Source: a virus
Taxonomy: Duplodnaviria; Heunggongvirae; Uroviricota; Caudoviricetes
Direction: 5' to 3' (one strand)
Virus record (IMG/VR): IMGVR_UViG_2690316149_000014
Location: 1-17,767 of that record
Length of the DNA: 17,767 nt
Shown: in pieces, positions 3,080 through 15,309 of the stretch
How the letters are laid out: each line of letters opens with the position of its first letter
How positions within the stretch are numbered: the stretch's first letter is position 1
Notes under the pieces: generated by a model
What the model was told of the DNA's origin: nothing
What the model saw: only the letters and a program-made list of their open reading frames with translations
Databases searched by the model: none
Program-made: the position numbers and the translations under genes

Positions 3080-3945
3080 CACTTCACCTCCTGCTGCGGT
3101 GCTGCTGGCATTTCACGCCAGTGCGTAACTGAGTGCGGATCCGGATATTCAGTGCCATCATCCCAGCGATTGCCATTCCACATTGCAGACCACATCTCAC
3201 CGTCTTCATACATGACCATTACCGGAATTAACTTATCCGGCATTCGCTCACTACAGCTTATCCAACCATCCGGAGTTACCGGAACTTGCGGAATGGCTGT
3301 CTGCTCTCGAACGTCATTAGGCGCTATAGGTTCTGCTGCCAACTGACTGGCATATTTGTTAATGGTAACGATAAGCTCTTGCTCAGCCTCATCCAGACAA
3401 TCACCGATACCTCGCCTGTCACCGTCAAAATCATCGAAATCGGCACGAATCTTGGCAACCTTCAGGATTGCGGACAACACTTCACTAGGAATTACCGGAT
3501 AGTTGGTTGACGTTTCCGCGATTTCCCGAAAATTATTGGTTGACGAATTCTTATTTTCCCGAAAGTTTCCGGACTGAAGCATGGCGGCGCGGCAGGCGTT
3601 CCAGCCTCTCACCTCTGCAATAGCGGCAACAGCATCAACCGCGTACATGCTAAGAGGATTAGGCATTGGTTTTTCTTCCGGTACTACTGGAACGGGGGGA
3701 GCGGCGTAGACCTCAATAATTCCATTATCAATAGGCCATTCTCCATCCTTGAGGTAGTCACTTGTGCCGTCAACTTGCTGTTCTGCAATGTGGAATGCAC
3801 CTATTGGTTTTGCTTCCAGCGATGCCAGAGCAATCCGTGCCAGTTCTTCCGCTTCTTCTGCTGGCAGTACAACGTTGCTACCCGGTCCGTATGTTTCGCG
3901 CCACTGCTTGATTGTCAGCAGTCGCTCTTTGGTTATAGTGGTCAT
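3079..3945 (-). CDS. Phage protein with C-terminal DUF551-like domain, 288 aa
   Basis: C-terminus (…DGWISCSERMPD…VTHWREMPAAP) resembles the recalled DUF551 signature of lambdoid early-region proteins; N-terminal two-thirds unassigned. Confidence 0.65.
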   Translation of the reverse strand: MTTITKERLLTIKQWRETYGPGSNVVLPAEEAEELARIALASLEAKPIGAFHIAEQQVDGTSDYLKDGEWPIDNGIIEVYAAPPVPVVPEEKPMPNPLSMYAVDAVAAIAEVRGWNACRAAMLQSGNFRENKNSSTNNFREIAETSTNYPVIPSEVLSAILKVAKIRADFDDFDGDRRGIGDCLDEAEQELIVTINKYASQLAAEPIAPNDVREQTAIPQVPVTPDGWISCSERMPDKLIPVMVMYEDGEMWSAMWNGNRWDDGTEYPDPHSVTHWREMPAAPQQEVK

Positions 3946-3955
3946 TTGTTATGCC

Positions 3956-4153
3956 TCAATACACGAAATCTGTTTTAAATTCATGGTTACATTCTGGACA
4001 GCATGTTTCGTAACCTTTTATTTCTTCACATGCCTGTTTAGCTCCAGAAAACTCCCAGAAATCTGGATCACAAAGCAGATCGAAATTGTGACCACATTTG
4101 GGACATTCGGTATCAAGTGACAGACTCCAGTAGGCAGTGATGTTTTTATCCAT
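3956..4153 (-). CDS. Small zinc-ribbon-like protein, 65 aa (two CPxCG-type pairs)
   Basis: Track ORF 3956..4186 overlaps the upstream gene; the internal ATG at 4153 has RBS AGGAG and sits 1 nt after the upstream TGA. Motifs CPKCGH…CCPECNH. Confidence 0.55.
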   Translation of the reverse strand: MDKNITAYWSLSLDTECPKCGHNFDLLCDPDFWEFSGAKQACEEIKGYETCCPECNHEFKTDFVY

Positions 4154-9441: not shown

Positions 9442-9468
9442 AAAAAAATTGCCCTCACATTAGAGGGC
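9442..9468 (-). terminator. Intrinsic terminator in the leftward early operon (tL1-like): GCCCTC-loop-GAGGGC stem plus U-run
   Basis: Minus strand reads GCCCTCTAATGTGAGGGCAATTTTTTT. Lies between the 156-aa gene and the RBS of the 322-aa gene. Confidence 0.6.
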
Positions 9469-9530
9469 AAAGAAGATTTCCAATAATCAGAACAAGTCGG
9501 CTCCTGTTTAGTTACGAGCGACATTGCTCC

Positions 9531-10051: not shown

Positions 10052-10351
10052 TCAAATAAGTGGTTTGCTGCCTAATTTCATTTTCTGGCGACCAACACAA
10101 GTCACACCCATTTCACTGCGTGGCTTGCGGTAGTAAATACGATTCTGTTTACTCTCTACTTCTTCTGCCTTCTTGCAGCGAAGGCTTCCGAGTGATGCTG
10201 CTTTATCTGCTCTGACGCAACCAGAGAGCTTTAGCGCAATTTTTCGCGCCAGTCGCTGCTCTTGCATTGCCTGTTCACGTTGAGCCTGTCTGCGTGCTCT
10301 GCGGCGATTTCTGGCGTTATCGTCAGCCAGATATGTAATGACTACTGTCAT
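10052..10351 (-). CDS. N: N-family transcription antiterminator, 99 aa, with arginine-rich motif
   Basis: Track ORF 10052..10423 trimmed to the ATG at 10351 (RBS GGAGG). N-terminal ARM …NARNRRRARRQAQREQ…; first gene downstream of pL/nutL; matching boxA/boxB sites on both sides of the immunity region. Confidence 0.65.
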   Translation of the reverse strand: MTVVITYLADDNARNRRRARRQAQREQAMQEQRLARKIALKLSGCVRADKAASLGSLRCKKAEEVESKQNRIYYRKPRSEMGVTCVGRQKMKLGSKPLI

Positions 10352-10391
10352 GTTGACCTCCGGGAAGGTACACATCCTTGTGTGTCGATGA

Positions 10392-10511
10392 TTATTTGTT
10401 TTTGCGTTCCCACATCCAGTCATCTACTTCAGACCAGATAGTGAAACCGAAGCAGATGGCGAATGTGGTAACTAAACCACCGAGAATTGGGTTGGTCATG
10501 ATGTCTAACAT
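10392..10511 (-). CDS. Possible small hydrophobic peptide, 39 aa, in the pL leader between nutL and N
   Basis: Below the track cutoff. RBS GAGGAA 6 nt before the ATG; one predicted TM helix. Could be a chance ORF. Confidence 0.25.
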   Translation of the reverse strand: MLDIMTNPILGGLVTTFAICFGFTIWSEVDDWMWERKNK

Positions 10512-10681
10512 TTTCTGTTCCTCAGATGATTAGCTTTGGTGGTGTGGTAGGTGGGAGACCCATTTCGACCCGCTTCGTCCGACTTCAATTCGGCAATAGT
10601 CCCGCAGGCCTCGCCGCTTTACGTGCGACATATTCCCGTCCATGAACCCTTCACCACACCCCAAAGCCAACTACTCTTTGG

Positions 10682-10724
10682 TTCCCGCATTTCGGCGGGA
10701 CAATCCCATCAATGTTAAAGAGCC
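10682..10724 (-). promoter_or_regulatory. nutL-like site: boxA (GGCTCTTTAACA) plus boxB hairpin (UCCCGC-CGAAAU-GCGGGA) in minus-strand transcript sense
   Basis: The boxB RNA is identical to the one at 12381-12398 on the opposite strand; boxA matches the CGCTCTTTA-type consensus. Confidence 0.6.
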
Positions 10725-10770
10725 TGCCAATCTTTTCCGTTTGGCTTCCAGCGTCCTGCTGATGGCTAAA

Positions 10771-10855
10771 GAATACTGTAGGTATTTTATTGTGTAAATA
10801 CCCAAGGTATTTATTTTTGATGAAATAATGATAAACAAATGAATACAAAGGATAT
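10771..10855. promoter_or_regulatory. OL operator cluster / pL region: three sites of form GAATAC-N5-GTATT
   Basis: Sites at ~10771-10786, 10797-10811 and a weaker one at ~10841-10855 share half sites with the OR operators. Confidence 0.55.
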
Positions 10856-10943
10856 TTATTTTTTCCGGTGTCTGCTTGTTCAGTGCTTTTTATGCGGGAT
10901 ATGTGAAGTGGATCCCGATAGCTATTGCTGCCGGGATTATGGG

Positions 10944-11312
10944 TTAGTCAGCGAAGGTTAAGACGAGAATTACCTTAATGATGTCTGCTACAACAGACAC
11001 GGCCATAGATAAACCAAAGACGATCCAAGCCATAGAGATGTCTTCACTACCATCGTATAGGGTTCCGTAATCACTGGTGTAAGGCGTAAATGTCGCGCCT
11101 TGATACAATAGGTATAAGCTTGATCCATAGAGGATAAATGCAGATATCCCTTGTATTGCTATGATCACTAGAATCATGAAACGAGCTGATCTATGCGCCC
11201 AAGCCTGGCTTATTTTTTCTGATAGAGATTTCGCAATAAAAGCATGCGCTAAGCCGTAAATTGTTGAGATTGCCAACATCCCCAAAAAGCTTGCTATAGC
11301 GGTTCCAACCAT
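10944..11312 (-). CDS. Small polytopic membrane protein, 122 aa, ~4 TM helices, in the rex position immediately downstream of cI
   Basis: RBS AAGGGGG; begins 19 nt after the cI stop on the same strand, upstream of OL/pL. No family recognised. Confidence 0.65.
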   Translation of the reverse strand: MVGTAIASFLGMLAISTIYGLAHAFIAKSLSEKISQAWAHRSARFMILVIIAIQGISAFILYGSSLYLLYQGATFTPYTSDYGTLYDGSEDISMAWIVFGLSMAVSVVADIIKVILVLTFAD

Positions 11313-11330
11313 AAGCGCCCCCTTGCGTGA

Positions 11331-12047
11331 TCAAACCAGTCTGAGTTTTGTCTCAATTGCAACGCCTATAATCTTGCAGTTTCCATTGATTGGCACGAGA
11401 GGCCATGCAGGATTAAGTCCCTTGAGGTATTTATTTCCGCCGTCGATTATCAGCTTCTTGAATGTTGCTTCGTTAGAGTCAGAAAGTTTTGCTATGACCA
11501 AGCTGCCGTTGATCGCCTCCCTTCCGGTATCGAAAAGAACGAATGTTCCCTCTGGAATGCTTAACCCAACCGGTGCCGTCATTGAATCACCTTCCACTTT
11601 AAGCCAGAACGCATTACCTTGAATATGCGCGTCAGACTCAAGCCAAACATCTATGTCTTTAATGGTGTATGGTTCGCATGCTTCACACCACGAGCCAGCC
11701 TGGATACTGCTTAACACCGGATACCTCTTTCCTGCTCTGTATTCCCCTGCATACCTTACGTTGGCATCGCTCTTAAGGCTTTCTGCCTGTTCTGCAACCT
11801 TGGCAGCAATTGACTGGCTAAAATCAGCAATTGAGACTTGCAACAATCGTGCAAAACCAGATGCAACCTCAACGTTTAGCGCGTTTCTGCCATTAAGATA
11901 ATGCCCTACCGCTCCTTGGGTGATACCCAGTTCATCAGCGATTGAGTATTGGGTTATTCCCAATTCTTTCTTTTTTGACTCATACAAAGCCTTAAGCCGC
12001 TTAGCGTCTTCGAGCTGTTCTGTCGTCAGTGATTTTTTATTTTCCAT
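11331..12047 (-). CDS. cI: CI-type prophage repressor: N-terminal XRE-family HTH plus C-terminal LexA/S24-like autocleavage domain, 238 aa
   Basis: HTH …QYSIADELGITQGAVGHYLNG…; C-terminal S24 signature …GDSM…/…KL…; no SD before the ATG (leaderless, as for lambda pRM); divergent from cro across an operator region. Confidence 0.9.
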   Translation of the reverse strand: MENKKSLTTEQLEDAKRLKALYESKKKELGITQYSIADELGITQGAVGHYLNGRNALNVEVASGFARLLQVSIADFSQSIAAKVAEQAESLKSDANVRYAGEYRAGKRYPVLSSIQAGSWCEACEPYTIKDIDVWLESDAHIQGNAFWLKVEGDSMTAPVGLSIPEGTFVLFDTGREAINGSLVIAKLSDSNEATFKKLIIDGGNKYLKGLNPAWPLVPINGNCKIIGVAIETKLRLV

Positions 12048-12082
12048 AGCTTAATTCTAATAGCTAAGGTACTTAAACTAAA

Positions 12083-12123
12083 AATACCCTGAGTATTGAT
12101 TGCTTTGAATACCTGTAGTATTC
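12083..12123. promoter_or_regulatory. OR operators with divergent pRM/pR promoters
   Basis: Two sites, AATACCCTGAGTATT (~12083-12097) and GAATACCTGTAGTATTC (~12107-12123), with centres ~25 bp apart. Candidate pR -35 TTGATT / -10 TATTCT; candidate pRM -10 TAGAAT placed for a leaderless cI start. Confidence 0.6.
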
Positions 12124-12153
12124 TTTGTTCATGGTTAATAACGGAGAGTGCAT

Positions 12154-12348
12154 ATGATTCGAATGACACTTGCCGATTACGCCAAAATCCATGGACAGGC
12201 TAAAGCAGCCAGTGACTTTGGTGTAATCCAGTGCGCTATCAGCAAGGCCATTCTGGCAGGCCGTAACATCATGGTTACGGTAAAGCCTGATGGCAGTGTG
12301 ATTGGAGAGGAAGTTCGTCCTTTCCCAAGCAACAAGAAAAACAAATAG
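12154..12348 (+). CDS. cro: Cro repressor, 64 aa from ATG 12154 (track ORF begins at GTG 12148)
   Basis: Recalled similarity to lambda Cro throughout; RBS GGAGAG upstream. Confidence 0.85.
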
Positions 12349-12354
12349 TAACAC

Positions 12355-12398
12355 CGCTCTTTAACAGTCATGGTCCTCATTCCCGCCGAAATGCGGGA
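12355..12398 (+). promoter_or_regulatory. nutR-like site: boxA (CGCTCTTTAACA) plus boxB hairpin (TCCCGC-CGAAAT-GCGGGA)
   Basis: Immediately downstream of the cro stop; boxB identical to the nutL copy in transcript sense. Confidence 0.6.
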
Positions 12399-12456
12399 AT
12401 ACAACGCGCATAAGTTGATGCGCATAACTTCTTATTAGTTAAGGAAATACTTACAT

Positions 12457-12735
12457 ATGCAACTTACAAGTACTCGCAAGAAAGCGAATGCAATTACAAG
12501 CAACATCCTGAATCGAATTGCTGTACGTGGTCAGCGAAAGGTTGCCGACGCGTTAGGGATTAATGAATCGCAAATTTCGCGATGGAAAGACAGCTTCATC
12601 CCAAAAATGGGAATGCTTCTGGCTGTTCTTGAATGGGGTGTTGAAGACGAGGAGTTGGCGGAACTGGCTAAGAAAGTAGCCAGAATGCTGACAAAAGAAA
12701 AAGCCCCGAAGAACGGCGAATTCTTCGAGGCCTGA
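12457..12735 (+). CDS. cII: CII transcriptional activator, 92 aa
   Basis: Recalled similarity to lambda CII (…SQISRWK…IPK..MLLAVLEWGV…); position right after cro/nutR. Confidence 0.85.
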   Translation: MQLTSTRKKANAITSNILNRIAVRGQRKVADALGINESQISRWKDSFIPKMGMLLAVLEWGVEDEELAELAKKVARMLTKEKAPKNGEFFEA

Positions 12736-15234: not shown

Positions 15235-15309
15235 TGACCATCTACATCACTGAGCTTGTAACAGGCCTGCTGGTAATCGCAGGCCTTTTTATTTGGGGGA
15301 GGGTAAATC

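Follow-up and report, generated by a model that had tools for sequence, protein, structure and literature searches.

The general mechanism of N-dependent antitermination is well described: the arginine-rich motif (ARM) of N binds the boxB hairpin, the central domain of N binds NusA, and nutR overlaps the rut site of the terminator tR1 (PMC3526286). Within the 17,767-nt stretch of viral DNA analyzed here (hereafter, the window), the region around the immunity genes shows 98.5% identity to phage HK620, and the GenBank record of that phage (AF335538, 2001) annotates the same sequences that are discussed below as putative nutL and nutR. It is very probable that the two hairpins of the window are the nutL and nutR of an HK620-type lambdoid E. 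coli prophage that employs a lambda-like N/boxB mechanism with a specificity class of its own. The nut sites as such are already known from the HK620 annotation of 2001, and because they belong to a common prophage type and were annotated in that phage, the observation is correct but ordinary.

The 18-nt element TCCCGCCGAAATGCGGGA occurs exactly twice in the whole window as an exact match, once on each strand (Table 1), so that the plus-strand copy and the exact reverse complement reported in the initial annotation are both present as described. No further copies with up to two mismatches were found in the window, and two matches were obtained in 0 of 200 dinucleotide-preserving shuffles. With up to one mismatch, GCTCTTTAACA likewise has only two occurrences in the window, at 12356-12366 (+) and 10713-10723 (-). 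In transcript sense, it lies upstream of the hairpin at both sites, where a boxA-like sequence had been noticed previously; on the RNA, this is a boxA of the CGCUCUU(U)A type (GCUCUUUAACA), located 5' of boxB with a spacer of 12 nt at nutL and 14 nt at nutR. Taken alone, boxA is weakly significant because 11 of the 200 shuffles also reach two matches; the combination of boxA and boxB is no chance event. Each early transcript contains one nut site: nutL is located between pL and N, and nutR, between cro and cII, starts 7 nt past the cro stop codon. In HK620, lambda, P22 and 933W, nut sites are annotated at the same positions.

Table 1. Coordinates of the nut sites and neighboring features in the window.
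Feature	Position	Strand	Description
Leftward intrinsic terminator	9449..9470	-	8-bp stem followed by 7 T; downstream of N; corresponds to HK620 tL2A, the homologous region annotated as a terminator
N gene, 99 aa	10052..10351	-	GGAGG ribosome-binding site; start as in the annotated HK620 N
39-aa hydrophobic ORF	10392..10511	-	GAGGAA ribosome-binding site; phrog_7482, E = 8e-25
N-leader long hairpin	10533..10667	-	933W-type sequence, -53.9 kcal/mol, z = -2.4
nutL boxB	10683..10700	-	UCCCGC-CGAAAU-GCGGGA in the pL transcript; exact match, inside the HK620 nutL feature
nutL spacer	10701..10712	-	UUGAUGGGAUUG, 12 nt, read from the sequence
nutL boxA	10713..10724	-	GGCUCUUUAACA; 12/12 identical to phi21 nutL boxA
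pL promoter	10763..10798	-	-35 TTTACA, -10 TATTCT, overlaps OL operators; promoter scan and position from the HK620 annotation
cI repressor	11331..12047	-	Pfam HTH_3 and Peptidase_S24; HK620 cI; immunity cassette between the nut sites
cro	12154..12348	+	Pfam Cro, E = 4e-26; HK620 cro
nutR boxA	12355..12366	+	CGCUCUUUAACA
nutR spacer	12367..12380	+	GUCAUGGUCCUCAU, 14 nt
nutR boxB	12381..12398	+	Same as nutL boxB; inside the HK620 nutR feature
cII	12457..12735	+	Pfam Phage_CII, E = 2e-43; first gene 3' of nutR/tR1
Rightward intrinsic terminator, strong	15263..15286	+	8-bp stem with 6 GC pairs, then TTTTATTT

The boxB 18-mer is predicted by RNAfold to form a 6-bp stem with a 6-nt loop (-9.7 kcal/mol, z = -2.9; 6 of 200 shuffles fold as well), and the hairpin is also present when a 61-65-nt context of either transcript is folded, in the minimum free energy structure as well as in the centroid; at nutR, flanking bases lengthen the stem to 8 bp. 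Folding of the two transcripts and comparison of the loops, two of the checks proposed in the initial annotation, yield the same stem and hexaloop in each context and a loop, CGAAAU, unlike those of lambda, P22/933W and phi21. The loop might take the form of a GAAA tetraloop on a closing C-U mismatch. No Rfam family matched the window at the gathering threshold; to our knowledge, Rfam includes no nut or boxB family. A second potential hairpin 3' of the nutR boxB (GCGCAU-AAGUUG-AUGCGC, 12406-12423) was rejected as a conserved element, given an uncompensated pair-breaking polymorphism (G to A opposite C).

A GC-rich 6-bp inverted repeat could also be an intrinsic terminator or attenuator, or else a DNA palindrome recognized by a phage DNA-binding protein, and the HK620 annotation indeed places tR1 directly after nutR. 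The terminator reading is rejected because neither copy has a 3' U-tract (nutR is followed by AUACAACG and nutL by ACCAAAGA); furthermore, the terminator scan calls neither copy. As for a palindrome, the operators of cI and Cro consist of another motif, 17 bp long, and a DNA-level site needs neither a boxA nor a loop oriented with transcription, so that this explanation is hardly credible. No sequence-recognizable tR1 was found downstream of nutR, and this terminator is presumably Rho-dependent. The intrinsic terminators identified in the window lie farther away; the strong rightward one is 3' of a DnaB-like replication gene, in a tR2-like position.

N is the product of the first substantial gene in the pL operon and has an ARM inside residues 1-33, with 7 arginines within residues 14-25. 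The protein is similar to PHROG 271, 'anti-termination protein N-like' (E = 1e-36), and to chain N of PDB 6GOV, the lambda N of the antitermination complex (E = 9e-4); its C-terminal 35 residues (65-99) are 54% identical to residues 74-107 of lambda N (E = 4e-10). The Pfam N_peptide model scores 18 bits, below its gathering score of 27.9 bits. The lambda-style arrangement of boxA, boxB and an N ARM suggested initially finds all its sequence-level counterparts here, and the prophage appears to carry an intact early antitermination circuit.

Under the reading of the hairpins as nut sites, RNA polymerase initiating at pL or pR would transcribe boxA (GCUCUUUAACA) and then boxB (UCCCGC-CGAAAU-GCGGGA). 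The hairpin would be bound by the ARM of the prophage's own N (residues ~11-30, DNARNRRRARRQAQREQAMQ), with host NusB/NusE on boxA and NusA on N and the spacer, and the tethered complex would render the polymerase resistant to tR1 and distal intrinsic terminators in both early operons. This scheme is modeled on lambda, and we infer that N binds the RNA, depends on Nus factors, acts in antitermination and is orthogonal, including to phi21 N. The pL transcript would include additional elements between nutL and N. The long N-leader hairpin, which shares 95% identity with the N leader of 933W, retains a stem of ~20 bp in two other leader sequence classes of related loci and is likely an RNase III-type processing or translation-control structure comparable to the lambda N leader. 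The 39-aa ORF, an insertion in the leader, occurs in the classes with leaders of 331 and 427 nt (8 loci in addition to the window); it is a passenger on the N-modified transcript, outside the nut system proper.

The relationship between boxB and the ARM was traced across loci that were collected by full-length N searches. Among the loci with an HK620-type ARM and both sites in view, 81 of 81 have the boxB of the window at both nutL and nutR; this set comprises IMG/VR loci together with the window, HK620, mEpX2 and vB_EcoP-611R6. The IMG/VR search yielded 80 loci with an HK620-type N, 78 of them with both sites in view; in every one of these 78, boxA and boxB are identical at nutL and nutR; two contigs stop short of nutR, and one locus (L048) is rearranged, with neither site present. 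The nut sites flank at least five unrelated immunity cassettes among the 81 loci, with inter-nut distances of 1135-3380 bp. In the reciprocal group, 64 of 64 loci with a phi21-type ARM carry boxBs of the phi21 type, whose hexaloop contains CUAA, and none has CGAAAU (one locus is without nutR in view). Altogether, boxB type follows ARM type in 145 related loci with zero exceptions. N residues 1-30 and both nut sites are common to HK620, mEpX2 and the window, but the C-terminus of N is different in each of the three. The HK620-type nut type is common in E. coli: among 5426 complete genomes, 501 contain its nutL.

Polymorphism in these loci avoids the hairpins, with 0 of 36 polymorphic columns in boxB versus 23 of 122 in the spacers and flanks (Fisher p = 0.002 for loci that are not independent). 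The perfect conservation of the 18-mer partly reflects recent common ancestry because the related loci are close relatives. The 11-nt core of the nutR boxA is invariant in 80 loci and the nutL spacer shows no polymorphism in the 81. The repeats might alternatively be recombination linkers ('boundary sequences') that mediate exchange of the immunity module, without any role at the RNA level. Homology between unrelated immunity cassettes does start just 5' of each boxA, the CUS-3 record marks the nutL region as a 'boundary sequence', and gene conversion between the two copies is seen in one locus (L029). A linker, however, would not account for the invariance of boxA and boxB next to an intervening nutR spacer with 4 of 14 columns polymorphic among related loci, for the asymmetric loop and boxA being oriented alike relative to transcription at both sites, for the 12/12 match to the phi21 nut boxA, or for the ability of the N ARM to predict boxB type. 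A linker role could accompany nut function as a by-product, but as the sole explanation it is insufficient and very improbable.

A natural swap is seen between one locus, L005, and phi21. The stretch from cro through OR, cI and OL to pL is 86.9% identical in the two, both boxAs match at 12/12 positions, and N codons 34-100 are 97.5% identical, whereas identity drops to 55% in the nutL boxB, 56% in the nutR boxB and 58% in N codons 1-33. The differences are confined to N codons 1-33 and to the two boxBs with the spacers and flanks belonging to them, with cro, cI, pL, the boxAs and N codons 34-100 at 87-100%. On the nutR side, divergence runs on rightwards into cII, so the nutR boxB difference is part of a larger replaced block rather than a targeted patch. 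The HK620-type inheritance unit has three parts, namely the nutL boxB, the nutR boxB and N codons 1-33, and the phi21 pair seems to have been exchanged for the HK620-type pair in an imm21 background that is nearly isogenic in other respects.

Genuine nut sites could lack a private specificity if the HK620-type and phi21-type ARM/boxB pairs cross-reacted because of their shared architecture. Both boxBs are 18-20 nt long, with 5' UC, 3' GA and a 6-7-bp stem, both hexaloops have an initial C and AA at loop positions 3-4 (CGAAAU and CUAACC), and the boxAs are identical; the N proteins align without gaps, with A13, K/R14, R16, A19, R20 and R21 in common and DNA 97.5% identical from codon 34. Nevertheless, the two types differ at 11 of the 18-20 positions of boxB and at the majority of those in the ARM, and the perfect segregation in the 81 and 64 loci holds even among loci with a common imm21-like cassette and N C-terminus, where mixing, if tolerated, would be easy. 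Cross-reaction accordingly seems improbable, although less so than the linker or terminator explanations.

An apparent counter-example, mEp213, was considered as a phage with the ARM but without matching nut sites, and was dismissed as such. The first N after pL in mEp213 has a lambda ARM and both its nut sites are lambda-type; the HK620-type N is an orphan second copy accompanied only by a broken boxB, with no boxA. The segregation of the 81 and 64 loci, the natural three-site swap and the case of mEp213 all support a cognate relationship between N and boxB. The complete N system with its own boxB specificity that had been proposed at first is thus well supported in its sequence elements and their co-inheritance; the specificity itself is something we infer. 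Co-inheritance also lends good support to the view that this pair would represent a specificity class separate from those of lambda, P22/933W and phi21. Searches of the accessible literature found no experimental paper on the pair and none with the ARM sequence or the HK620 nut sites.

We see about an even chance that the ARM NARNRRRARRQAQRE together with the boxB hexaloop C-GAAA-U forms a fourth, structurally uncharacterized mode of N-peptide/boxB recognition, orthogonal to those of lambda, P22 and phi21. If so, the exchange of pairs would offer a before-and-after view, from nature, of a switch in specificity, and the pair might serve as a new RNA-tethering tag that is orthogonal. The value of the finding lies in correct annotation of the sites, which bound an exchangeable immunity cassette, and is modest beyond that. 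In addition, the comparison of phi21 with the HK620 type provides a clean natural specificity swap that can be used for studying or engineering orthogonal peptide-RNA pairs.

Compared with the known systems, the window shares with lambda the order boxA-spacer-boxB, the location of the sites after cro and in the pL-N interval, and the A-x-x-RRR-x-RR pattern of the ARM. The lambda boxBs (nutL GCCCUGAAGAAGGGC and nutR GCCCUGAAAAAGGGC in the records), however, carry a GAAAA/GAAGA pentaloop on a 5-bp stem, and lambda has a non-consensus boxA, CGCUCUUA. Its ARM begins at residue 1, whereas in the N of the window ~10 residues precede the motif; lambda Trp18 aligns with Ala28, and residues 1-33 of the window N contain no Trp. 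P22 gp24 has an MTV(V)ITY N-terminal lead-in like that of the window N, and P22 has a consensus-type boxA (CGCUCUUUA); the P22 and 933W/H-19B boxBs, in contrast, carry a GACAA pentaloop on a stem of 5 bp, the ARM sequence is unlike that of the window, and the nutL and nutR boxBs of P22 differ from each other whereas those of the window are identical. With a hexaloop on a 6-bp stem, the window falls outside both the lambda-type and the P22/933W-type classes. The phi21 system is closer, with the same genome layout, identical 12-nt boxAs, a homologous pL-boxA region and leader, 97.5% identity in N codons 34-100, and similar boxB geometry (a 6-7-bp stem and a hexaloop with an initial C). The phi21-type class is nevertheless defined by the loop CUAACC and the ARM GTAKSRYKARRAELIAERR, and the window has CGAAAU, different stems and the ARM DNARNRRRARRQAQREQ, with only 55-56% identity in boxB and 58% in N codons 1-33. 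The N C-terminus is phi21/lambda-like in the window (99 aa), whereas HK620 (Clark et al. 2001, J Mol Biol 311:657) has a 90-aa N with a P22/933W-like end; the nutL-to-N leader is 331 nt long in the window, with the 933W-type hairpin and the 39-aa ORF, versus 107 nt in HK620. HK620 and the window have the same boxA, spacer and boxB at each site and do not differ in N residues 1-56, and their cI, cro, operators and cII show 98.5% identity; both class features, the boxB UCCCGCCGAAAUGCGGGA at both sites and the N start MTVVITYLADDNARNRRRARRQAQREQAMQ, are present in the window exactly as in HK620.

The paired 18-nt inverted element described in the initial annotation is borne out in all details. 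The boxB 18-mer TCCCGCCGAAATGCGGGA is found exactly twice in the window, in opposite orientations, with no third copy there at up to two mismatches; two copies were obtained in 0 of 200 dinucleotide-preserving shuffles. The boxA GCTCTTTAACA is confined to these two sites and lies 5' of the hairpin in both transcripts, 14 nt away at nutR and 12 nt at nutL. TCCCGCCGAAATGCGGGA is predicted to fold into a hairpin whose 6-bp stem carries the hexaloop CGAAAU (-9.7 kcal/mol, z = -2.9), and this hairpin is recovered for each of the two longer contexts in both the MFE and the centroid structure. Neither copy is followed by a U-tract or called by the terminator scan. The N-like ORF is indeed an N homolog, as indicated by its matches to PHROG 271 'anti-termination protein N-like' (E = 1e-36) and to the lambda N chain in the antitermination complex structure 6GOV, and by the 54% identity of its final 35 residues to lambda N 74-107; its Pfam N_peptide score is under the cut-off. 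The predicted membrane protein encoded in the same region occupies the position of lambda rexB; its gene is a candidate for an exclusion or conversion function expressed by the prophage. The window is an E. coli prophage adjoining the sucrose transporter gene cscB.

Features of the immunity region and flanking operons in the window
Feature	Position	Strand	Remarks
Strong intrinsic terminator	9470-9449	-	Leftward operon, downstream of nutL
N	10052-10351	-	99 aa, begins MTVVITYLADDNARNRRRARRQAQREQAMQ; GGAGG ribosome-binding site
N leader	10352-10682	-	nutL boxB to N start
39-aa ORF	10392-10511	-	Hydrophobic, MLDIMTNPILGGLVTTFAICFGFTIWSEVDDWMWERKNK; GAGGAA ribosome-binding site
Long leader hairpin	10533-10667	-	-53.9 kcal/mol, z = -2.4
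nutL boxB	10683-10700	-	TCCCGCCGAAATGCGGGA
nutL boxA	10713-10723	-	GCTCTTTAACA
Predicted membrane protein	10944-11312	-	122 aa; HK620 hkaS, phrog_6534; directly downstream of cI
cI	11331-12047	-	HTH_3 and Peptidase_S24 domains (Pfam)
cro	12154-12348	+	ORF and Pfam
nutR boxA	12356-12366	+	GCTCTTTAACA
nutR boxB	12381-12398	+	TCCCGCCGAAATGCGGGA
cII	12457-12735	+	ORF and Pfam
Strong intrinsic terminator	15263-15286	+	Rightward operon, downstream of nutR, after DnaB-like gene

These nut sites have been annotated before, and their arrangement is a textbook one. The region shares 98.5% identity with phage HK620, whose GenBank record labels 'nutL; putative N-utilization leftward' and 'nutR; putative N-utilization rightward' over boxA-spacer-boxB sequences identical to those of the window, along with pL, pR, the operators and tR1; boxAs are marked also in the mEpX2, HK630 and HK140 records. 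This nut type is common: the nutL is found in 501 of 5426 complete E. coli genomes, and the 26 phage records that contain it all have the nutR as well. No experimental work on the HK620-type ARM/boxB pair was found in the literature searched; the pair may represent a fourth orthogonal mode of recognition.

Whether the N ARM and boxB form a cognate pair was approached by four independent comparisons, namely mosaic N proteins, cassettes, a reciprocal phi21-type set and a natural swap. HK620, mEpX2 and the window have N residues 1-30 and both nut sites in common but three different C-terminal parts of N. Among the 80 IMG/VR loci that encode the window-type N, boxA and boxB are identical at both sites in all 78 with both in view; two contigs stop short of nutR, and the rearranged locus L048 contains neither site. 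The DNA between the nut sites consists of at least 5 unrelated cassettes (1135 to 3380 bp), and homology from cassette to cassette begins immediately upstream of each boxA. Across 81 loci (IMG/VR loci together with the window, HK620, mEpX2 and vB_EcoP-611R6), polymorphic columns number 0 of 36 in boxB, 1 of 22 in boxA, 4 of 26 in the spacers and 9 of 38 downstream of nutR; the difference between boxB and the remaining columns (Fisher p = 0.002) is to be taken as indicative, since the loci are related. Reciprocally, where the motif is of phi21 type (MVTIVWKESKGTAKSRYKARRAELIAERR and close variants; 64 loci), the boxBs are phi21-type without exception, having UCUCAAC or UCACCU stems and the loop CUAACC or close variants (nutR is not in view in one locus), and the CGAAAU hairpin occurs in none of the 64. 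In the boxB loops of the phi21-type loci (L090-L157), the first four bases, CUAA, are invariant whereas the last two are CC, CA, CU or UC, which hints at the positions important for phi21 N.

The natural swap is seen in the related locus L005, compared with phi21 as represented in a lambda imm21 record. The segment comprising cro, OR, cI, OL and pL is 86.9% identical, both boxAs match at 12/12 positions and N codons 34-100 are 97.5% identical, in contrast to 55% for the nutL boxB, 56% for the nutR boxB and 58% for N codons 1-33. Similarity is likewise below that of the cassette in the spacers (50-64%) and in the nutL leader (73.5%). By these identities, the three elements expected to interact have been exchanged together in an otherwise common background; the divergence runs from nutR into cII, so that the nutR boxB change belongs to a larger block.

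Several individual records deserve mention. In L048 (IMGVR_UViG_2731957842_000007, 3500-4010), unrelated sequence directly precedes the window-type-ARM N and its ribosome-binding site, and neither nutL nor nutR is found within 4 kb; this prophage is probably rearranged or defective. In the nutR of L029 (IMGVR_UViG_2718218171_000002), the 12-nt nutL spacer TTGATGGGATTG replaces the 14-nt nutR spacer, a sign that the two inverted copies of nut have undergone gene conversion. The pL operon of phage mEp213 (JQ182733) contains two N genes (2016-2348 and 3501-3773). This phage resembles an exception to ARM/boxB matching but conforms to it: the first N after pL has the lambda ARM, and both nut sites are lambda-type. 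The second N, of HK620 type, follows 1.5 kb further downstream, preceded by a broken boxB GCCCTCCGAAATGCGGGA and no boxA; it may be a remnant of recombination or an N that lacks sites of its own. A 235-bp segment of the 254-kb jumbo-phage record of Aeromonas phage AP1 (MT713136, 832-1066), spanning the cro 3' end, nutR and the start of cII, is 99.6% identical to window 12214-12448; it sits in the unannotated last kilobase of the record and is thus most likely an assembly chimera or contamination.

The leader between the nutL boxB and N is an insertion hot spot, ranging from 107 to 564 nt across the 81 loci with the same N and nut sites and composed of interchangeable blocks. In the 331-nt leader of the window, 23 nt of the HK620-type leader are combined with a hairpin of 933W type and a segment with the 39-aa ORF. 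This ORF, a member of phrog_7482 (E = 8e-25), is shared by the window with 8 related loci, and its expression from pL would precede that of N. The long hairpin matches the 933W N leader at 95% identity, and a stem of ~20 bp is kept with different sequences in two other leader classes (HK620-type, z = -4.6; 'AUUGGAUG' type, z = -6.2); by position, it is presumably comparable to the RNase III site in the leader of lambda N. Further inserts are found in related loci (e.g., L037, L004) but not in the window, among them a ~205-nt block with a strong Shine-Dalgarno sequence, then ATG-TGA (AGGAGGATTTATGTGA), and a GC-rich hairpin, and a 251-nt block 2 nt past boxB.

In lambda-type antitermination, the N ARM contacts boxB on the nascent RNA and the central part of N binds NusA (PMC3526286). 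By homology with lambda, the ARM of the window N would bind boxB of the nascent RNA, its central part would hold NusA, boxA would recruit NusB/NusE, and the modified polymerase would pass tR1 and the downstream terminators. The nut elements are present and co-inherited in the related loci; boxB binding, Nus dependence and read-through we infer for the window system. The sites are very probably functional nut sites for the resident N.

boxA and boxB sequences read from the phage records
System	boxA	boxB
lambda	CGCUCUUA	GCCCUGAA(A/G)AAGGGC
P22	CGCUCUUUA	GCGCUGACAAAGCGC (nutL), CCGCCGACAACGCGG (nutR)
933W	not identified	GCGCUGACAAAGCGC (nutL), UCGCUGACAAAGCGA (nutR)
phi21	(G/U)GCUCUUUAACA	UCUCAACCUAACCGUUGAGA (nutL), UCACCUCUAACCGGGUGA (nutR)
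window	(G/C)GCUCUUUAACA	UCCCGCCGAAAUGCGGGA (both sites)

Compared with the classical systems, the CGAAAU hexaloop is unlike the boxBs of lambda, P22 and phi21, and the two boxBs of the window are identical whereas those of nutL and nutR differ within each of these phages. That the specificity of the window pair is private, and not common to phi21, seems likely, albeit with less assurance than the function of the sites. In architecture, phi21 is the nearest system, with the same boxA and a C-initial hexaloop, and the two N proteins align gap-free with A13, R16, A19, R20 and R21 in common; the window pair has a loop and stem unlike those of phi21 and differs from it at most ARM residues.
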